From assembly GCF_030013595.1 (NCBI RefSeq), contig NZ_CP122768.1: a stretch of 64,000 nt of DNA. One strand, given 5' to 3'. Every line of letters begins with the position of its first letter. Position 1 is the stretch's first letter. A program made the position numbers and the translations under genes. The stretch comes from Escherichia coli (GTDB lineage Bacteria > Pseudomonadota > Gammaproteobacteria > Enterobacterales > Enterobacteriaceae). Positions 3,371-57,272 of the stretch are shown here, one piece after another. The notes under the pieces were generated by a model. It saw nothing but the letters and a program-made list of their open reading frames with translations. It had not been told where the DNA came from and searched no databases.

Positions 3371-4516
3371 ATGACAAATAATGAATGCAAAGGGCCGTTT
3401 GAAGGCTTATTAGTTATCGATATGACACATGTCCTTAATGGACCTTTCGGAACTCAACTTCTTTGTAATATGGGCGCAAGGGTAATTAAAGTTGAGCCGC
3501 CGGGTCATGGTGATGATACCCGCACATTTGGTCCCTATGTGGATGGACAGTCACTCTATTACAGTTTTATTAATCATGGCAAAGAGAGTGTGGTTCTTGA
3601 TTTAAAGAATGATCACGATAAAAGTATATTTATAAATATGCTTAAACAAGCTGATGTATTAGCTGAGAATTTTCGCCCAGGTACAATGGAAAAACTGGGG
3701 TTTTCATGGGAAACGCTACAAGAAATCAACCCGCGTCTCATCTATGCTTCATCGTCAGGTTTTGGGCATACCGGCCCGCTAAAAGATGCTCCAGCCTACG
3801 ATACCATCATTCAGGCAATGAGCGGGATAATGATGGAAACAGGGTACCCTGATGCTCCGCCAGTGCGCGTGGGTACCTCTCTTGCGGATTTATGTGGCGG
3901 TGTCTATTTATTCAGTGGAATAGTGAGTGCACTTTATGGCCGCGAAAAGAGCCAGAGAGGGGCGCATGTCGATATAGCGATGTTTGATGCCACGCTGAGT
4001 TTTCTGGAGCATGGTCTGATGGCATATATTGCGACAGGGAAGTCACCACAACGCCTGGGAAATCGCCATCCCTACATGGCACCTTTTGATGTTTTTGATA
4101 CTCAGGATAAGCCGATTACTATTTGTTGTGGTAATGACAAGCTTTTTTCTGCGTTATGCCAGGCACTGGATCTGACGGAGCTGGTTGATGATCCCCGATT
4201 TATCAGCAATATTTTACGCGTACAAAACCAGGCTATTCTTAAACAATATATTGAGCGAACGTTAAAAACGCAGGCAGCTGAAGTTTGGTTAGCCAAAATA
4301 CATGAAGTTGGTGTGCCCGTCGCGCCGTTATTAAGTGTGGCTGAGGCCATTAATTTGCCACAAACTCAGGCGAGAAATATGTTGATTGAAGCCGGAGGAA
4401 TAATGATGCCAGGTAATCCGATAAAAATCAGCGGCTGCGCGGACCCGCATGTTATGCCGGGAGCGGCAACGCTCGACCAGCATGGGGAACAAATTCGCCA
4501 GGAGTTCTCATCATAA
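3371..4516 (+). CDS. yfdE: Family III CoA-transferase (acetyl-CoA:oxalate CoA-transferase YfdE)
   Basis: Translation MTNNECKGPFEGLLVIDMTHVLNGPFGTQLLCNMGARVIKVEPPG... is CaiB/BaiF family; start chosen at internal ATG of the 394-aa ORF. Confidence 0.8.
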   Translation: MTNNECKGPFEGLLVIDMTHVLNGPFGTQLLCNMGARVIKVEPPGHGDDTRTFGPYVDGQSLYYSFINHGKESVVLDLKNDHDKSIFINMLKQADVLAENFRPGTMEKLGFSWETLQEINPRLIYASSSGFGHTGPLKDAPAYDTIIQAMSGIMMETGYPDAPPVRVGTSLADLCGGVYLFSGIVSALYGREKSQRGAHVDIAMFDATLSFLEHGLMAYIATGKSPQRLGNRHPYMAPFDVFDTQDKPITICCGNDKLFSALCQALDLTELVDDPRFISNILRVQNQAILKQYIERTLKTQAAEVWLAKIHEVGVPVAPLLSVAEAINLPQTQARNMLIEAGGIMMPGNPIKISGCADPHVMPGAATLDQHGEQIRQEFSS

Positions 4517-47942: not shown

Positions 47943-49325
47943 ATGGCTAGTTGGCAACAAGGAATCAACTCAGGCGGCTTTCTTGCTGGTATCGGTGGGC
48001 AAAACTCAAATGCGCCAAAGGCAAGTGATGTAAGTGAGGCGTTGGCCTATATTCGCCAGAACAACGAAATGGAGCGCTCAGGTCGCAATAACATCGGCCT
48101 TCAGGCGTTGCAGGGGCTTGGTAGTGTCGCTCAAACATATCAAGCCGCAAAGCAACAGGAATTCCAAAAAGAATATGCGGCAGCCATCCAGTCAGGTGAT
48201 CGGCAGCAGGTGCGAGATCTGATGACCAAATATCCTGGTCAATTAGAGAAGATTCAGTCTGGTATGAAGTGGGCAGACGAAGACCAGCGCAATTCTATCG
48301 GCACCTTAGCGGCTGGCGCACGCCTTGCGTCATCGTCTCCAGAAGCAATGCAATCATGGCTGCAAAACAACGCCAAGGAACTGGCGCGCGTCGGTGTTGA
48401 CCCTAACAGCGTTGCTCAGATGTATCAGCAAAACCCTTCAGGATTTGGTGAGTTTGTTGATCACCTTGGAATGGCTGCTCTTGGTCCGATTGATTACTTC
48501 AATGTTCAGGACAAGATGGCTGGTCGTGAAATTGACCGAGGCAAACTGGCAGAGACAATCCGCAGCAATCAGGCTGGCGAGGCGCTAACAGCACGAGGCC
48601 AGAACATCACGATGCGCGGTCAGGACTTATCTGCTTCTACTGCGCGACGAGGTCAGGATTTGGCAATGCAGCGAGCGTCAACAAGACGAATCGCTGGGAA
48701 TGATGAGCGTACAGTTCAGTTATCAGATGGCAGAACTGTAACGGTAGGCGGGAAGCTTCACGGCGCTGGGGCTAATGCGTTCTACGAAGGCATCGACAAC
48801 GAGGGGAATATGGTTCGCGTCCCTGCTGGCTCTATTGCCGCTCCGGCTACATCGGCAGCAAGCGCGCAGAATTACGCAATGAAGAAAGATCTTGATGCAA
48901 TTTCTGGTGCATCAATTGACGATCTTGGCTTCATGACTGGCATTACAGGCTCTTCAGGTTCTCCTGCTCTTGGTGCAGATATTCGTAGCCGTGCATCTGG
49001 TGGTGATCAGAGGAAACTATACAACGCTGCACAGCGAATCCAAGGAAAGATGCAGAATCAGGGCATTGCAGCAGCCAGAGACATGGGGGCATCCGGTATC
49101 AACACCGTTGCAGAAGCAAAGATGTATTTTCAAGGTATGCCACAGGTTGATTTCTCAAGCCCTGAAGCACTGCAACAATCAATGCGCGACATTCAGCAAT
49201 ATACCGACAATTACAACCAGCAATATAACGTTAATGTTGGTAAATCTCAGCGGCAGCAATCTCAACCTGCACAGGTATCACAGCCAGCAGCCAGCAGTAA
49301 CTTTTCTTCACTATGGGGTGATTAA
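47943..49325 (+). CDS. Ejection protein (P22 gp20-like)
   Basis: 460 aa, positional. Confidence 0.55.
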
Positions 49326-51430
49326 TGGCTAAAGCATGGAAAGATGTTATCGCTTCTCCACAGTATCAGGCGTTAGCACCAGAACAAAAAGCGCAGGCTC
49401 AGGAGCAATACTTCAATGAAGTCGTGGCCCCGCAAGCCGGAGAAAGTGTAGAGCAGGCTAAGCAGGCTTTTTATGCTGCCTATCCACTACCATCAACGAA
49501 TGAAATAGACCGATACCAATCAGCAACTCAAAATATTCAACATACATCATCTGATAATTCTCTTGCGTCAGGGTATGCAAAGTTAGCTACTCAGCAAAGA
49601 GAGGGGCTTGAGCGTTCAGCAGAACAGGGAGCCAGTCTTGGGGCTGCGATGCGCGATGCTATAACAGGCGAAAGCCGAATGACTCCAGAGATGGAGAGAC
49701 TGCAAAATGTCGACCTTGCCCCAGAGTTAACCTCACTCAGCATGGATGCTCTAAAAGCTCGATGGTCTCAACTTTTCGGCTCTGACGCATCTCAGGAAAA
49801 GATTCTTCAGAGCATGGGAGCGAAATTAAGGCAGGATGAGAAGGGGAACACTATCGTTTCCCTGCCATCCGGTGATTATGCTCTGAACAAGCCGGGTTTA
49901 TCGCCGCAAGACGTGGCATCGTTTCTGGCTAATGCGCTGGCGTTTACACCAGCGGGCAGGGCTGGAACGGTGCTTGGTGCCATAGGAAAATCAGCAGCTA
50001 CAGATTTAGCACTACAGGGAGCCACCAGCCTTGCTGGTGGAGAAGATATTGATCCGTTACAAACGGTAATTTCTGCTGGCATTGGTGGTATTGGTAAGGG
50101 GCTGGAAAATACAGCGAGTGCGGTTTCGAGGGCTGTTCGTGGTGATATGTCGCCTGAAGCAAAGGCTGCTGTCGACTTTGCATCGGAAAGAAATCTGCCG
50201 TTAATGACCAGTGACATGCTGAAAGATAAAACCTTTATGCAGAGTCAGGCTCAGACATTAGGCGAAAGAGTTCCTTTTTTTGGAACCGGTAAGAATCGGC
50301 TGAATCAACAACAAGCACGAGAAAATTTAGTCAGAACATTTAGCGATGGTCTGGGTGGTATTTCTGATAAACAGCTTTATGAATCTGCGACTAAAGGGCA
50401 ACAAAAATTCATTGAGGCAGCAGGAAAGCGATATAACCGCATAATTGACGCTATGGGGGATACCCCTGTCGATCTCTCAAACACGGTAAAAGCTATCGAC
50501 AATCAGATTGCCGTGTTAAGCCGCCCGGGCAAATCTCAGGATAGAGCCGCGGTAAAAGTCTTGCAGCAATTTAAAGACGATATCACCAGCGGGCCAAATG
50601 ACCTGCGTCTGGCGAGGGAAAACAGAACCGATCTTCGAAAGCGATTTATGGCGTCATCTGACACTGTTGATAAAGATACGCTCCAGAAAGCCAGCGATAT
50701 TATCTACAAGGCATATACGGCGGATATGAAAAAAGCCGTAGCCAAAAATCTTGGAGCAGACGAAGCCATTAATATGGCAAGGGTTGATCGCTCATGGTCT
50801 AAATTCAATGACATGATGGGAAGAACGCGCGTTCAAAAGGCAATAGCCAGCGGCAAGGCCACGCCTGAGGATGTAACAAAACTCGTTTTTAGCCAAAGCC
50901 CATCAGAACGTTCTCAGCTTTACAGGCTTCTGGATGACAATGGTAGGCAAAACGCACGAGCAGCCATAGTTCAGAATGCTGTAGATAAGGCGACTGATCC
51001 GTCTGGAAATATCAGTGTTGAGAAGTTTATTAATGCGTTACACCGGAACAGGAAGCAATCAGCAACTTTCTTTAAAGGCGTACATGGAAAGGAACTGGAC
51101 GGCGTTATTAAATACCTCAACGATACAAGACACGCGGCAAAAGCGAACGTTCAAAACTTAAATGGTCAGCAGCTTTATGGATTGTTAGTTGGTGGTGGCA
51201 TCATAAACGCAGCAGTATTAGCGGGGATGCTAAAAACGGCTGCGTTTGTTGTTCCTGCTGCTGGTGCCGTAGGCGGAGCAGCGAAGGCATACGAAAGCCC
51301 TGTTATACGAAATGCCTTGTTACGTCTGGCAAATACGCCAAAAGGTAGCACAGCATATGACAGAGCGATCAGTACGGTCACACAATCGCTCACCAGAGTC
51401 GCACAGGCATCACAAAAAGAAGCTCAATAA
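49325..51430 (+). CDS. Ejection protein (P22 gp16-like)
   Basis: 701 aa with hydrophobic C-terminal segments; last gene of the ejection-protein block. Confidence 0.6.
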   Translation: MAKAWKDVIASPQYQALAPEQKAQAQEQYFNEVVAPQAGESVEQAKQAFYAAYPLPSTNEIDRYQSATQNIQHTSSDNSLASGYAKLATQQREGLERSAEQGASLGAAMRDAITGESRMTPEMERLQNVDLAPELTSLSMDALKARWSQLFGSDASQEKILQSMGAKLRQDEKGNTIVSLPSGDYALNKPGLSPQDVASFLANALAFTPAGRAGTVLGAIGKSAATDLALQGATSLAGGEDIDPLQTVISAGIGGIGKGLENTASAVSRAVRGDMSPEAKAAVDFASERNLPLMTSDMLKDKTFMQSQAQTLGERVPFFGTGKNRLNQQQARENLVRTFSDGLGGISDKQLYESATKGQQKFIEAAGKRYNRIIDAMGDTPVDLSNTVKAIDNQIAVLSRPGKSQDRAAVKVLQQFKDDITSGPNDLRLARENRTDLRKRFMASSDTVDKDTLQKASDIIYKAYTADMKKAVAKNLGADEAINMARVDRSWSKFNDMMGRTRVQKAIASGKATPEDVTKLVFSQSPSERSQLYRLLDDNGRQNARAAIVQNAVDKATDPSGNISVEKFINALHRNRKQSATFFKGVHGKELDGVIKYLNDTRHAAKANVQNLNGQQLYGLLVGGGIINAAVLAGMLKTAAFVVPAAGAVGGAAKAYESPVIRNALLRLANTPKGSTAYDRAISTVTQSLTRVAQASQKEAQ

Positions 51431-51448
51431 CTGGTTAGCCATGGATGG

Positions 51449-51637
51449 TTATTTCCTTAGCACATGAAACAATGTTTGCTTTAATTCCACCCATACAATT
51501 ATGACCACTATAGACAGACAAAAGAAACTGAATGCATTGGCATCACGATCGAAACCTTCTCCGGCACTAAATCCGTAAAAGGTCATAAAAAATATAAAAA
51601 TTGCGCACTTTGCAACGTTTACAAATTTTTTCTTCAC
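51449..51637 (-). CDS. Small hydrophobic membrane protein (62 aa, two predicted TM helices), antisense to the tail operon
   Basis: GTG start 5 nt after a perfect AAGGAGG SD on the minus strand; strongly hydrophobic translation. Confidence 0.5.
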   Translation of the reverse strand: MKKKFVNVAKCAIFIFFMTFYGFSAGEGFDRDANAFSFFCLSIVVIIVWVELKQTLFHVLRK

Positions 51638-52011
51638 ACCAACCTCCTTAGTTTTGCTCAGGATACCAGATGATACTTTATTGGTGGAGTGGTGTGTGAA
51701 AACGTGTCAACGACAAACCATCCACAACTTGGACGAATGATTTAGCAAAAAGTGCTATTTTTGGTGTTTAGTGTCATAGAAAAGTGAATAGCTCACTTTT
51801 CAACATTGCATGAAACTTGCAGGAAATGTGACATTACCTTATAGGTAATTTCGGCGAAAATGCAGTAAATGTGAAACGTAATGGTTTAAACATGTCGCTA
51901 AAGTGGTTGTAAGTTAGCCTCCGAAGGATTGCTGATAGCTTTGTTATAGTATTAAATGACATTTGACATAGTTGGATACTTAGCTGTGGCTATCAAGATG
52001 GAGGTGTGTTC

Positions 52012-52455
52012 ATGCTTACTTGTTTTGATGTCGCCGACTACTTCCTGTCGCGGTGTGACGAGGATAGCGGTGACACAATCTCTAATTTAAAATTACAAAA
52101 GCTTGTTTACTATGCTCAGGGGTTTTCATTGGCGTTGCTTGGTGAGCCTCTTTTTCAGAATAAGATGGAAGCTTGGATGCATGGCCCTGTTGTCCCTGAG
52201 CTTTATCGCCGTTATAAACAATATGGTAATGGAGCTATCCCTTCTCCAGAGTCTTTTGATGCTGAAAAATTCAGCGAAGAACAGTTAGAGCTATTAGAAG
52301 AAGTCTGGGATGTTTTTGGGCAATTTTCTGCCTGGAAACTGAGGAACATGACACACGAAGAGTCACCATGGAGATCAAACTATATTGAGGGTGTTGGTGG
52401 TTCTGAAATTAGCTCTAAGGAGATGGCAGAGTACTTTGCAACTCGGATTAACTAA
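52012..52455 (+). CDS. Panacea/DUF4065-like (SocA/GepA-type) protein, putative antitoxin-type component
   Basis: MLTCFDVADYFLSRC...NLKLQKLVYYAQGFSLALLGEPLF...AWMHGPVVPELY matches the recalled DUF4065 signature; GAGGTG SD upstream. Confidence 0.55.
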   Translation: MLTCFDVADYFLSRCDEDSGDTISNLKLQKLVYYAQGFSLALLGEPLFQNKMEAWMHGPVVPELYRRYKQYGNGAIPSPESFDAEKFSEEQLELLEEVWDVFGQFSAWKLRNMTHEESPWRSNYIEGVGGSEISSKEMAEYFATRIN

Positions 52456-52459
52456 CGAG

Positions 52460-52879
52460 ATGGCAAGAAAATCTAAAAGGATTATCCCCCCTGCTGAATC
52501 TACAGGTAAGTTAAAGTTAGGGCCGCAGTCAGGGGGGAATTCAGATCAAAAGAAACCGAAATTTTCATTCTGTTACATCCAAAGCTCTCACTGCATAACG
52601 AAATGCCAAAAAGATGAGAAAGCTGGCTTAGCTGATAAATTATACAGATTAAGTCAACTAACATGGGCAGAGATTAAGCAGCAAGGTAGGCATAAGCTTG
52701 GATTTGAGAAGATTGCAAGGGGTGCAATTAAAGCTGGTATCCCCGGTCATATAACGGAAGACGTAGATCATTTCTTGGCTTTTAGATTTGATGATTTGAA
52801 AGCCATGGTTGGTTATCGTCTTGGATCGACATTTTTTGTTATATGGCTTGATAGAGAGTTCAACCTATACAAGCACTAA
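52460..52879 (+). CDS. Unknown partner protein (139 aa), translationally coupled to the Panacea-like gene; candidate toxin/effector
   Basis: ATG 4 bp after the upstream stop; basic N-terminus, Cys/His cluster, C-terminal ...GYRLGSTFFVIWLDREFNLYKH; strong terminator follows. Confidence 0.5.
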   Translation: MARKSKRIIPPAESTGKLKLGPQSGGNSDQKKPKFSFCYIQSSHCITKCQKDEKAGLADKLYRLSQLTWAEIKQQGRHKLGFEKIARGAIKAGIPGHITEDVDHFLAFRFDDLKAMVGYRLGSTFFVIWLDREFNLYKH

Positions 52880-52881
52880 TA

Positions 52882-52908
52882 AAACCCACCGTCAGGTGGG
52901 TTTTTTTG
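52882..52908 (+). terminator. Rho-independent terminator ending the two-gene operon
   Basis: cccacc-gtca-ggtggg hairpin followed by TTTTTTT. Confidence 0.75.
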
Positions 52909-52923
52909 TTGGAGATAAAATGG

Positions 52924-53127
52924 TTAACCAAATCGATCCTTAAAGCGTCTATCGCTGTTGCGTCTCTCCATTTTACTGTTGCAGTACGGACAAAGATGCT
53001 GTTTCTTTCCATCGATAGTCCATGTGAAGTACTTTTTCTTAAATCCAGCACCACAGATATCGCAACTTCTTGGTTTAAACATACTGGCTATGAAGATAAG
53101 AACAACAAATCCTATGATCCATTCCAT
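52924..53127 (-). CDS. Small membrane-anchored zinc-ribbon protein (67 aa)
   Basis: N-terminal TM helix MEWIIGFVVLIFIASMF followed by CDICG...CPYC zinc-ribbon pattern. Confidence 0.35.
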   Translation of the reverse strand: MEWIIGFVVLIFIASMFKPRSCDICGAGFKKKYFTWTIDGKKQHLCPYCNSKMERRNSDRRFKDRFG

Positions 53128-53268
53128 ATCATGTACCTGTTTTAACTTTATTTTTTGATTTTTAGGGATTAATCAGAAACTTTATCTTGCGATTAAGCAA
53201 AGCTACTAGCTAACAAAAGAGTGCGTATACAATCAATCGTTTCACATCAACCTCAACAAGGAGAAATC

Positions 53269-53454
53269 ATGACCATAGAAGAACGCCTGAACAACATTGA
53301 GTTGAACCAAACCCTGCTTGACCAGCGACTTTCAGATCTTGAGCTTAAAGATCTGGATGCGCAAATATCAGAAGCAGAAGCCAAGCTCTCCAGCTTAAAC
53401 CACCGCAAGAAGCAAATCCGCAACAGAATTACTCAGGGACGCGGAAGCCGTTGA
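53269..53454 (+). CDS. Small coiled-coil protein (61 aa)
   Basis: ATG preceded by AAGGAG SD at ideal spacing; heptad-like MTIEERLNNIELNQTLLDQRLSDLELKDLDAQISEAEAKL. Confidence 0.4.
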   Translation: MTIEERLNNIELNQTLLDQRLSDLELKDLDAQISEAEAKLSSLNHRKKQIRNRITQGRGSR

Positions 53455-53463
53455 AATCCTAGT

Positions 53464-53781
53464 CTATTTTTTCTCAGAGCTCATATTGTAATAGGTGGTA
53501 TAAATAGAGATTGATTTCTGACATGCTTCAAGAAATTGCTGCGGAGTCATCCCGAGCCTTGCTTGCTCTGTAGTAAGGAATCTCTGTAAGAATTCATTCC
53601 CACCTGGCATGTTTGTAGATTCTTGGAATATTGCCATTTGTTTGATTGCACCACACATACCAGCCATTTTAGAAGCTATCATGAGGCCTTGTATTTCATC
53701 AAAACTGCTATCGTCTGATTTTGTTTCTGCGTTAGCTATGCTCGAGAGACACAGGAGCAATAGGATAGCGATACGTTTCAT
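53464..53781 (-). CDS. Secreted/periplasmic protein (105 aa, cleavable signal peptide), co-transcribed with the mnt-like gene
   Basis: MKRIAILLLLCLSSIANA signal sequence; start overlaps the mnt-like stop (ATGA). Confidence 0.5.
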   Translation of the reverse strand: MKRIAILLLLCLSSIANAETKSDDSSFDEIQGLMIASKMAGMCGAIKQMAIFQESTNMPGGNEFLQRFLTTEQARLGMTPQQFLEACQKSISIYTTYYNMSSEKK

Positions 53782-54029
53782 TTTTCACCATTGCCATGCA
53801 TACATTTTAACTTCTCAACATCATGCTCAAGCTCTATCAGTCGCGATGCTATAGTTGCAAGATCTAGTGCTTGAATGTGTTTGTTTTTTTCGGTCCATGC
53901 TTCAAGTGCTGCGACCATCTCAGCATTTAATGAACGAGAATTAGCCTCAGCCAGTTCAATAAGACGTTCCTTTATCTCTACAGGAAGCCTCAGATTCACT
54001 TGAGGGTTTTTGTACTTACGATCAGACAT
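53778..54029 (-). CDS. Mnt-like ribbon-helix-helix repressor (Arc/MetJ family)
   Basis: 83 aa; N-terminal ...NLRLPVEIKERLIELAEANSRSLNAEMVAALEAW RHH fold; divergent from the arc/ant pair as in P22 immI. Confidence 0.7.
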   Translation of the reverse strand: MSDRKYKNPQVNLRLPVEIKERLIELAEANSRSLNAEMVAALEAWTEKNKHIQALDLATIASRLIELEHDVEKLKCMHGNGEK

Positions 54030-54104
54030 CGGCGCATCCTGAATAATTTTTTACCACAGGATATGTAGGTATCTATTGACTATCAATGCGTACCTAAATA
54101 CTAT

Positions 54105-54121
54105 GTATGCGTACCACATAC
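54105..54121. promoter_or_regulatory. Candidate operator: imperfect palindrome GTATGCGTACCACATAC with ATGCGTACC repeated 21 bp upstream
   Basis: In the divergent mnt-like/arc-like intergenic region, just upstream of the arc-like start. Confidence 0.4.
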
Positions 54122-54133
54122 AAAGGAGCAAAA

Positions 54134-54280
54134 ATGAAAGTTAAGACATTAAGGATGCCAGAATGGCTGGAAAAGGCTTTGGAGCAGTCCGCGAAAAAGG
54201 ATGATCGGTCGTTCAGTAATGAGGTATTGAGGAGACTAAAGGAGTCAGTAGCTAAGGATGGAATTGTTTGTCCAGAATGA
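54134..54280 (+). CDS. Arc-like ribbon-helix-helix repressor (48 aa; below ORF-track cutoff)
   Basis: Manual translation MKVKTLRMPEWLEKALEQSAKKDDRSFSNEVLRRLKESVAKDGIVCPE; GGAG SD upstream; precedes the ant-like gene. Confidence 0.55.
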   Translation: MKVKTLRMPEWLEKALEQSAKKDDRSFSNEVLRRLKESVAKDGIVCPE

Positions 54281-54346
54281 GTAAAGCCCAAGCTATTGCG
54301 AGTAGCTCGGGCTTAAATCGCCAGTAAATTTTGAGGAAAAACTGAC

Positions 54347-55276
54347 ATGAAAAGTATAGCAACAGCAGTATCTACTATCAACGTGCCATTCCACGGCGCA
54401 GAGCTTTATGTCGTCAATCACAACGGTGAGCCGTACACCCCAATGAAACCTATCGTTGAAGGTATGGGTATGGATTGGGCTTCACAGTTTACGAAAATAA
54501 AGCAACGGTTTAAAACCTCCATTGTGAAAATCACAATGCAGCTTCCTGGTGATGAACAGTGCCGTGAGATTATTTGTTTGGCACTTCGCAAACTTGCTGG
54601 CTGGCTGCAAACCATCAGTCCAAACAAAGTCCGCCCTGAAATCCGCGACAAGGTAATCCAGTATCAGGAAGAGTGTGACGATGTGCTATACGAGTACTGG
54701 ACTAAAGGCCATGTAGTTAACCCACGCAAAGCTAAAAAGGCGTTGCCGGGTAAAATCACCACTGAACAGCAGGAAGCCATTAAACAACTCGTCATGAGTC
54801 GCGGTCAGTCTCTGCCAAAAGAAAAACAGGCTAAGGCGATGATCACCATGTGGTCGTCACTGAAATCCCATTTTGGATGTTCGTACAAAGAAATCAGTGA
54901 GGAGCAGTTTACCGAAGCACTGTCACTTGCTGCTCGAGTTCCACTTGAAGGTGAGTTCATTGGCAAACAAGAGAAGAAAACCAACGAGCTTTCTGCAAAA
55001 GAAGCAAACAGCCTTGTATGGCTCTGGGATTATGCTAACCGTTCACAGGCATTATTCCGCGAATTGTATCCGGCGCTAAAACAAATTCAATCGAACTATT
55101 CCGGCAGATGCTACGACTACGGTCATGAATTCTCGTATGTTATCGGAATGGCGAGAGACGTTTTAATCAATCACACACGAGATGTTGATATTAATGAGCC
55201 AGACGGACCAACGAATCTTTCCGCATGGATGAGACTTAAGAATAAAGAATTACCTCCTTCAGTACATAACTACTGA
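54347..55276 (+). CDS. Antirepressor (Ant-like)
   Basis: 309-aa ORF following the arc-like gene, in the position of P22 ant. Confidence 0.6.
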
Positions 55277-55376
55277 CAGATAACCAACGCAACGACCCAG
55301 CTTCGGCTGGGTTTTTTTATGCCCAAAATTCACCGTGGCCACGCTGCGGCGATTCATTGTATCTGGAGCAAATTAA

Positions 55377-57272
55377 ATGACAGACATTACAGCCAATGTG
55401 ATCGTATCGATGCCTTCGCAACTCTTCACTATGGCGCGTTCTTTTAAAGCCGTAGCCAATGGCAAAATTTATATAGGGAAAATTGACACTGACCCGGTAA
55501 ATCCTGAAAACCAGATTCAGGTTTATGTGGAGAATGAAGATGGCTCTCACGTTCCTGTTTCGCAACCAATAATCATTAACGCTGCCGGATATCCGGTATA
55601 TAACGGACAGATTGCCAAGTTCGTAACTGTGCAAGGCCATTCTATGGCTGTTTATGATGCGTATGGGGCGCAGCAGTTCTATTTTCCTAATGTGCTGAAG
55701 TATGACCCTGACCAATTAAGACAGGAGCTATCTAAGCAGACTGATGGTTATTTTTTTAACCTTCCTCAAGGTGGTGTACTACATGATGCAATAAAGTATG
55801 TAACACCAGAAATGTATATCAATACATCTTCAGATATTACATCTGCTATACAAAGTGCATTTGACAATGGAAATGTGATTGATATGTCAGGTAGAGACTG
55901 GACTCTTGAGAGAACAATCCATGTCGGTGATGGCACTGAAATAAAGTTAGGCGCATCAACAATTACATGTCAACTTGGTTCTAAACCTGCTTTTGACTTT
56001 AGAGGAACAGATAAAGGACTCCTGGTCACAGGAGGTAAGTTTATTGGTAATTGCTCTGCAGTATTTTATTTCCAAGGGACTACTGCTTTCCCTTCTCAAT
56101 CAGGTCACTATGCAAGAAAAATAAGAATATACGGCACAGATGCTACTTCAGATACGGATGAGATAATTGATTTCATCTATATGAAGGACGCTGTAAGGCA
56201 AGTTTTTATTGATTCATGTTATGCATATGTAAAAAACGGCATTACTGCAAGCGGGAAATGTGTGGAGGTGAAAGTCCAAAAAAGCATATTCAACTCAGGA
56301 ACTTCCGATCAAAGTTCTTCTAGGATAAGTCTAAATTCACCGTCAGGAGCAAGTTATTACAACGAAGGTTGGCATTTTAGTGATTGTACAATTGATGGAG
56401 TTGGAAAATCATTTAATGTTACCGATATATATTCGTTAACCATCAATGGAGGATTTATCGGTGGTGAGGTTGCGTTTGGACAGCCAATAACAACACATTG
56501 CCGTGAGATCGTACTCGGTGGTGGATTAATCATGAAAGGGCGTGTTACTTTCACGCCAACCGTACAATATGACTACAGGGCCAACATATCTCCTTCTCTT
56601 ATGTTTGGTAATGGTGGAGTTGGAAACGTGGTCCTTAATGCAGGTGCTTCAGGCATCAACGTTAGCACAAAACTTGAAAGTTCTGGTGTTTCAGGAGGAA
56701 CTGGCGTTATTGTTAATGAAGGATGTTCTAATGTTAACGTTGACCTGAGCGCTGATAATACGTATGAAAGACTGGCGTCATTCAATGGTTACGGACCAAG
56801 GTGTTCCGCTTTGATACGTAACTACATGGGAAGCTCTCACCCAATTTATACAGAGCGACCATTAAAGATTATATCATCGCCTGTCACTGACGACGCTGGT
56901 TCTCTGCAGGTTATGAGTTTTGTAAATATACCAGCAGGAAGCTATATTGTTGGTTCTGTTATGTCTGAGGTGAAAGTGACTGCACCAAAAGGTTCTAGAG
57001 GGAAAATTTCTCTTACCATTTCACTGAGTGGATTAACAGGCACATCTTCACAGGCGCTTATTGTAAATATTCCTGCCGGAATGGTTACCCCATCCGGTTT
57101 AGGTTGGGCTTCAAATGTTATTAGACCTCAGTTTGCGGCTGGAATAATGAGTATTGAAATACCATTTTATACAACCACAGACATTGCAGAATCCTCATTA
57201 TCTGTATCTAATTTCTCAGGAAATACAGCAATTGTTGGACTAAACTCTTACATTGGATATTTTTTGATATGA
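55377..57272 (+). CDS. Tailspike protein: conserved P22/Sf6/HK620-type head-binding domain + divergent beta-helix receptor-binding domain
   Basis: N-terminal ~113 aa [60 protein letters not shown]...VLKYDPDQ; remainder Gly/Ser/Thr/Asn-rich and repetitive. Confidence 0.85.

Follow-up and report, generated by a model that had tools for sequence, protein, structure and literature searches.

Gene content of the locus

The 64,000 nucleotides of DNA analysed here (the window, to whose positions all coordinates refer) derive from a P22-like (Lederbergvirus) phage or prophage. The ejection-protein genes (47943-51430, plus strand) are followed by a 62-aa two-helix membrane ORF on the minus strand (51449-51637, with a GTG start at 51637-51635), then by the interval that is the subject of this report and a two-gene cassette. 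The first cassette gene, panA (52012-52455, plus), encodes a 147-aa Panacea/DUF4065 antitoxin in which the Panacea domain (PF13274, SocA_Panacea, E = 1.8e-24) is the sole Pfam match, no DNA-binding domain being detected. The second (52460-52879, plus) encodes a putative toxin of 139 aa that falls in no Pfam family and has weak matches to NCBIfam MAG6450 (E = 0.03) and, in its C-terminal part, to PADLOC NsnC (E = 9e-6). A strong intrinsic terminator made up of a 10-bp stem and a T-run (52881-52904, plus) closes the cassette, and beyond it lie an mnt-like gene, arc (54107-54280), a sar-like match, ant (54347-55276) and the tailspike gene.

The interval between the membrane ORF and panA is non-coding

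The initial annotation had described the interval as lacking a credible ORF, AT-rich and carrying short GTGAA/AATGTGA-type repeats, and each of these descriptions was borne out. The region 51638-52011 is non-coding. It is present in 84 of 5426 complete E. coli genomes and unannotated in all 84, as it is in all matching phage records. The only ORFs are one of 42 aa on the minus strand (51834-51962) and one of 44 aa on the plus strand (51956-52090), and the differences between two close leader classes in both of these are almost all non-synonymous. As, in addition, no 3-nt periodicity of column variability was found in any frame among 26 diverged homologues (0.70/0.63/0.67 by codon phase, with similar values in all frames), the interval was classed as non-coding. 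Coding tests in all six frames were negative, and the small reading frames are not conserved between lineages.

The leader has a GC content of 37.9 %, lower than that of the window (46.4 %) or of the upstream gp16-like gene (47.4 %). Repeats of the AAAWGTG type are more frequent than chance, with four copies of AAAGTG observed against 0.28 expected in the leader and two of AATGTGA against 0.08, counts reached by only 0-1 of 2000 mononucleotide shuffles; the motifs were chosen post hoc and these P values are therefore indicative only. A 14-nt direct repeat, TGCAG[G/T]AAATGTGA, occurs at 51818 and 51861, and five AAA[A/T]GTG-type sites in the same orientation form an array (51749-51905, plus) with GTG at 51752, 51784, 51828, 51871 and 51903, hence a spacing of 32, 44, 43 and 32 nt. 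The array is specific to the lineage of the window, and other lineages match it in part only.

Two divergent expression modules

The interval is made up of two divergent expression modules placed back to back. Its description as a leader of approximately 370 bp upstream of the Panacea-like operon is correct for most of its length, but the first 50 nt or so (51638-51690) belong to the small leftward gene. This part is a leftward expression module of the P22-like backbone (minus strand) that includes a predicted -10, TATCAT (51675-51670, minus), a 5'UTR, and a Shine-Dalgarno sequence, AAGGAGG (complement of 51643-51649), which feeds the GTG of the 62-aa membrane ORF. When aligned, TATCATCTGGTATCCTG..CAAAACTAAGGAGGTTGGTGTG is invariant before four unrelated leftward ORFs (the 62-aa ORF, sieA, Emek gp14 and a YobH-like gene) and the sequences upstream differ. 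BLAST breakpoints likewise define 51633-51690 as common to many P22-like prophages with quite different genes on either side. In a position-weight scan TTCACA-19-TATCAT gave the best score of the interval, 9.0, yet one within the range expected by chance. We read 51638-51690 as the constant leftward start module (-10, 5'UTR and ribosome-binding site) of the P22-like sieA locus. The sieA position (51449-51690, minus) is a second site of gene swapping, with an invariant start module and different ORFs in each phage. The genes found at the cassette locus in other P22-like phages are sieA, a P63C-domain gene, or a c2-like repressor gene together with Rha and KilA genes.

A mobile cassette with the architecture of a moron

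The remainder of the interval forms part of a mobile cassette (51690-52906, plus). This cassette recurs, 99.3 % identical over 1217 bp, in a prophage that is not P22-like and has baseplate and tail-fibre genes (L007/L018), and the leader therefore travels with panA, the toxin gene and the terminator. The breakpoints fall at 51690 and 52906, the terminator being the right-hand end of the mobile unit.

Morons are promoter-gene-terminator units inserted in late operons, reportedly first described in HK97 and HK022, and their promoters are normally treated as short and specific to the individual element. The architecture of 51690-52906 is that of a moron, and the ordinary kind of feature to which the leader belongs is a moron promoter region. 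Like known morons, the cassette is inserted between conserved phage genes, varies in presence among relatives, moves between unrelated phages, is lower in GC, and has its own factor-independent terminator (52881-52904) and a predicted promoter of its own; for the last, the comparative -35/-10 signature is strong across the family and the hexamers of the window itself score poorly. It differs from known morons in that an upstream region of approximately 290 nt is conserved and common to at least six unrelated cargoes. 'The moron comes of age' (PMC3594210) presents phage morons as independent transcriptional units.

A leader family shared by unrelated cargo genes

The closest relatives of the window leader fall into two classes, A and B, and class-specific differences between them begin only at 51884. 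The near-identity of the two classes over 51690-51884 could reflect recent recombination rather than selection. At class B loci the leader is 94 % identical and the PanA protein only 71 %, so that conservation is higher in the leader than in the cargo. No gene is annotated after panA in the RefSeq class B loci L005 and L006; a 140-aa ORF is seen in this position in class B loci from viral contigs, for example L172. Two further loci, L042 and L069, encode PanA homologues that are 67-68 % identical, and their leaders have diverged but keep a few islands of identity; in L042, a long ORF ends approximately 400 nt upstream. The leader of L069, but not its ribosome-binding site or panA, matches sequences in phage HK639 (76.5 %) and Salmonella phage SW-37 (85.6 %). 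In HK639 the leader is followed by genes for a 190-aa protein and a YafO toxin, within the tail gene cluster.

Further members were sought in a collection of viral contigs using three pattern scans. A search pattern that required island i (see below) and TATTAA was followed by two without the island i requirement, one of them also without the promoter island, which largely removes the bias towards island i. A separate viral pattern scan recovered only classes A and B and the L042 and L069 contigs that were already known, a metagenome scan yielded only class A and B copies, and a scan of genome contigs found only PanA homologues of no more than 71 % identity, none with the leader. Altogether, the three pattern scans brought the count to more than 40 distinct leaders before at least six two-gene cargoes, namely PanA (147 aa) with a 139/140-aa protein, a 190-aa protein with YafO (phage HK639), a 59-aa protein with Doc (TIGR01550; phage SW-37), PanA (190 aa) with a 133/150-aa protein, a 72-aa protein with a 267-aa membrane protein, and a 113-aa protein with a 241-aa protein. 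Every cassette closes with its own terminator. Most lie in lambdoid tail clusters just upstream of a gene which, from its N-terminal sequence examined by eye, we take to be a lambda gpM-like minor tail gene.

The long upstream part of the leader belongs to a conserved, cargo-independent family that is reused by several unrelated toxin-antitoxin-like cassettes. A hidden Markov model of the leader found it in none of the distant PanA loci of other bacteria, and hence it is an element of enterobacterial temperate phages rather than a feature of Panacea systems. Neither the leader motif nor the HK639 moron nor any native regulation of PanAT was found described in a limited literature search, and native regulation is not described in the Panacea paper (PMC8832971).

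The predicted promoter and the cargo-specific 5'UTR

In every lineage, homology between leaders stops just after GTATTAA(AT) or its equivalent, and the cargo-specific 5'UTR begins. The end of homology follows a -35 (TTGCTN), an 18-nt spacer and a -10 (TAnnnT) and marks the predicted promoter of the cassette at 51929-51958 (plus), which in the window consists of -35 TTGCTG (51929-34) and -10 TAAATG (51953-58) separated by 18 nt. TTGCT[C/T/G] and TAnnnT are kept 18 nt apart despite unrelated spacer sequences between leader classes; conserved hexamers held a constant distance apart by an unconstrained spacer are typical of a sigma-70 promoter, and the pair was assigned accordingly. The -10 varies with the cargo and is TAAATT before Doc, TAAGAT before YafO, TAAAAT or TAGAAT in the 190-aa PanA class and TAAATA or TAAATG in the 147-aa PanA class. 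Alternative -10 readings in the window are TATTAA (51950-55) and an extended -10, TGtTATAGT (51942-50), and transcription is predicted to start at approximately 51957-51966.

The hexamers of the window are weak, TTGCTG-18-TAAATG having a G at -7, and neither consensus nor position-weight scans returned a plus-strand site in the leader above shuffled sequence. Promoter prediction, one of the checks proposed originally, did not lift the -35/-10 of the window above shuffle expectation on the plus strand, and the hexamers at 51929-51958, which we infer to be those of the cassette promoter, were placed by comparison only. The earlier proposal that the interval holds the operon promoter is very probably right, given the conserved -35/-10; as to the operator proposed with it, only nearby candidate operator-like dyads were found. 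Two other promoters considered by eye were rejected. One, just downstream of island i (TTGAAC/TTGACC), has no -10 at a workable distance, and the other, using TTGACA at 51963-68 as the -35, has no -10 and is absent from L042 and L069.

The 5'UTR (51959-52011, plus), with a Shine-Dalgarno sequence GGAGG at 52000-52004 before the ATG at 52012, is conserved only among lineages with the 147-aa PanA cargo. It includes a dyad, TTAGCTGTGGCTAT (51980-51993, plus), replaced by ATAGCTGCGGCTAT in relatives, that is a candidate operator, and ATAGCTGCGGCTATCAAGATGGAGGT, which is common to class B, L042 and L069. With each of the other cargoes, a different dyad occupies this position. An alternative class of promoter was seen in L256, L259-L264, L268 and L269, where a dyad, TTATAGCTGGCTATAA, lies between the -35 and the -10; its core, TAGC-N2-GCTA, resembles the SlyA consensus TTAGCAAGCTAA.

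Conserved islands upstream of the predicted promoter

Overall, the window leader is approximately 46 % identical to the majority consensus but identity is uneven, falling to 29-40 % outside a small number of islands. Island i, GCAAAAAGTGCTATT (51745-51759, plus), agrees with the majority consensus at 15 of 15 positions (100 %), against 29-36 % in its flanks, and its core, GCAAAAAGTGC, is kept in all lineages. In the scan that did not require it, island i was exact in 29 of 33 leaders and the variants alter only the 3' CTATT. A reading of this island as an extended -10 promoter (TGcTATTTT) was rejected, as it is destroyed in the natural variants TGCGGTTTT, TGCGATCGG and TGCTTTTTA.

Island ii (51830-51875, plus) consists of a small dyad, ATTACCT-TAT-AGGTAAT (51833-51849), followed by TTCGGCGAAAATG, and matches the majority consensus at 32 of 46 positions (70 %). 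The TTACC...GGTAA arms and a TCnnCGAAA block are kept in all lineages, and the island contains a -10-like TAAnnT at 51846-51851. A smaller conserved block, GTCGCTAAAGTGG (51894-51906, plus; TCGTCGAACnTG in other lineages), corresponds to the nearly invariant columns 225-236 of alignment A4. The promoter itself forms island iii, with 20 of 31 positions (65 %) as in the majority consensus. Between islands i and ii, at 51779-51801, the window has a perfect 9-bp dyad, GAAAAGTGA-ATAGC-TCACTTTTC, with a loop of 5 nt; in other lineages CAT[A/C]G-N7-CTATC is found at the same place, with one fully compensatory variant. Pairing of this dyad in DNA and in RNA would look alike here, since there is no strand asymmetry (G-U versus A-C).

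Island ii lies 106-107 nt from the promoter in all lineages. Islands i and ii are 103-105 nt apart, except in one group of lineages where the distance is 94 nt, one helical turn less, and the argument for helical phasing rests on what is essentially a single indel event of 10-11 bp. From the conservation of these islands we infer that they bind protein. Since they are conserved independently of the cargo, they cannot be antitoxin operators, and since the phages that carry them are unrelated, a host factor is the likeliest binding protein. Comparison by eye with consensus sequences gave no fit in spacing to CRP, LexA, FNR, IHF, Fis or marbox sites, nor to an OxyR/LysR-type box, sigma-32, sigma-54 or Arc/Mnt operators, and no island was matched to a known regulator.

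Some of the prophages with the leader carry the 15-mer of island i a second time, directly before the -35 of a dinI promoter with a LexA box, which suggests that the 15-mer is a portable protein-binding or promoter-upstream element. In L243 (3703-3790), and likewise in L222, L236, L245 and L246, this second copy of GCAAAAAGTGCTATT lies 6 nt upstream of the -35 TTGAAT of a promoter with a LexA box, TACTGTGTTTATATACAGTA, that drives the gene directly after the Doc cassette; the product of this gene we take, from its sequence alone, to be DinI-like.

The lineage of the window lacks the leftmost conserved block of the other lineages. In these, the block ATATTACAGCAAT repeats the promoter -35 region, ATTGCTCAAATAT, in inverted orientation at a distance of 211-220 nt (3374-3387 and 3608-3621 in L216; 4914-4926 and 5138-5150 in L255), and the two could be paired operators that form a DNA loop. 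In L257 (5368-5430) and L258 the leftmost block, GGGGCGAAATATTACAGCAAT, occurs alone with approximately 40 nt of upstream sequence and has unrelated sequence downstream, then a terminator and a small coiled-coil-like ORF. The leftmost block may be an independent module.

The leader is not a sar-like RNA locus

It had been suggested that the leader encodes a small regulatory RNA, by analogy with the sar antisense RNA said to occupy the equivalent region of P22 immI. The P22 immI region (mnt/arc/ant and sar, RF00262) is found in the same phage family and in the same neighbourhood, between gene 16 and the tailspike gene, but sar lies between arc and ant, and the leader lacks sar-like sequence, structure and terminator. 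The analogy fails because the window has a sar-like element at the canonical place: a match to RF00262 at 54280-54346 (minus; 29.3 bits, E = 0.007, below the gathering score of 43) sits exactly between arc and ant, the true sar-equivalent position. The leader, between the small membrane ORF and panA, is approximately 2.3 kb upstream of arc/ant and does not have the location of sar, between these genes and antisense to the ant ribosome-binding site. An Rfam search of 50500-55500 of the window and of four majority-lineage loci returned nothing for the leader, with no match at E<=10 in 51640-52011.

The structure and covariation analysis that had been proposed as a check revealed no consensus structure on either strand across 27 homologues. 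RNAalifold on these 27 sequences (300 columns) gave -4.6 kcal/mol for the plus strand and -3.2 kcal/mol for the minus strand, with a covariation term near 0. The plus-strand fold is no more stable than those of shuffled sequences (z = -0.9), and the whole-leader minus-strand z of -2.05 is driven by two dyads. The signals in whole-leader and sliding-window analyses are local and come from these two dyads, with local z-scores reaching about -2.4 at 51740-51880. No plus-strand terminator was found inside the leader, and neither a covarying structure nor a terminator/anti-terminator or ribosome-binding-site sequestration arrangement of the type found in structured cis-regulatory RNA leaders was seen. 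A regulatory RNA role for the leader is not supported, although a leader that is transcribed from a start farther upstream yet lacks structure would be compatible with these results.

What the leader may do

The reading that we prefer, to which we assign a probability of roughly 55 %, is that of the two modules the rightward one, 51690-52011, is a moron leader that acts as DNA and contains a promoter and protein-binding islands. The leader would work as DNA rather than as a structured RNA. The sigma-70 promoter at 51929-51958 would drive expression of panA and the toxin gene in the lysogen, and the approximately 240 bp upstream of it would hold three or four conserved protein-binding islands spaced at about 10 helical turns. 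These islands would give the cassette a regulatory input that is independent of the toxin-antitoxin pair that follows, and the short 5'UTR (51959-52011) would add a cargo-specific dyad and the ribosome-binding site. A more far-reaching version, which we regard as speculative and, on present evidence, unlikely to be right, makes the leader a portable cis-regulatory socket, namely a nucleoprotein switch that combines a weak promoter with three or four sites in helical phase and provides one common input to any toxin-antitoxin or defence cassette placed behind it. Such an input might be lysogen-specific expression or expression that responds to infection or stress through a host factor, and cargo would be exchanged by recombination at the -10.

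The mosaic pattern of the leaders could also be explained if only the promoter and ribosome-binding site were functional and the rest were a hitch-hiking homology arm for cassette swapping. Consistent with this, one middle segment is common to L187 (PanA) and L244 (YafO), another to L194 (PanA) and the Doc-type loci, and there is a sharp step in identity at 51884 between classes A and B. However, islands i and ii and the 106-107-nt spacing survive at approximately 46 % overall identity between the lineage of the window and the others, a divergence at which neutral DNA should have kept neither its sequence nor its length; we therefore consider this explanation tenable but somewhat improbable. 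We rate as rather less plausible still a promoter near island i or ii (e.g. TAATTT at 51846-51851) and a transcribed leader of 150-250 nt with post-transcriptional control of the operon by local hairpins such as 51779-51801 and 51833-51849. Potential hairpin-forming dyads do recur at matching places of the alignment in every lineage, differing in sequence and with one change that is compensatory, the TAnnnT of island ii is kept in most lineages, and local folding z-scores reach about -2.4 at 51740-51880. Yet consensus structure and covariation are lacking over the whole leader, local stability is equal on both strands with no G-U versus A-C asymmetry, the island i variants TGCGGTTTT and TGCGATCGG lose the -10-like reading, L217 and L238 break the TAnnnT of island ii, and a segment that was simply part of an RNA leader would not readily account for the -35/-10 pattern seen in island iii.

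Finally, a small sar-like regulatory RNA, a small protein or a type I toxin, for example one encoded by the 42-aa minus-strand ORF, has very little to commend it. Many lineages do have minus-strand open frames of some 42 codons and the minus-strand z for the whole leader (-2.05) points the same way, but these frames are not homologous between lineages, stop codons interrupt them in L216 and L242, and there is no third-position bias. Thus, no conserved frame with a codon-position bias, as would be expected of a small protein or type I toxin, was found, nor was there an Rfam match, a convincing terminator or a conserved structure, and the sar-like match of the window lies elsewhere.

Toxin-antitoxin and defence cassettes of prophages are usually studied from artificial promoters. 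If the leader is indeed cargo-independent, the logic of their expression would be that of the platform and not of each system. The leader would also offer a handle for finding new cassettes, by searching for it and reading what follows, and is a testable regulatory element with islands that can be deleted, re-phased or used as bait. Even if only the promoter matters, the boundaries of the cassette are fixed and the region is shown not to be a sar-like RNA locus.

Comparison with known systems

In type II toxin-antitoxin autoregulation the antitoxin binds an operator that overlaps the promoter. The cassette resembles such systems in being a two-gene operon with a promoter immediately followed by a cargo-specific dyad, but differs in that the PanA found here has no recognisable DNA-binding domain of the kind with which an antitoxin binds its operator. 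Integrons have a conserved promoter-bearing platform, Pc/attI, before interchangeable cassettes. The likeness to the leader is one of functional analogy only, as a promoter platform before exchangeable cassettes; here, neither an integrase nor attC-like sites are present, and each cassette has its own copy of the platform. Cassettes appear to be exchanged through general recombination close to the -10.

The defence hotspots of P2-like phages and P4-like satellites are defined by conserved flanking core genes (PMC9122126). They too have variable anti-phage or toxin-antitoxin cargo at fixed prophage positions, but it is not a conserved non-coding leader travelling with the cargo, as seen here, that defines them. 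One further copy of the leader, 99.1 % identical, lies at 895-1216 of NZ_CP148433.1 (match H82), a record of 4,122 bp that bears the label of an E. coli plasmid and may be an assembly fragment of the prophage.
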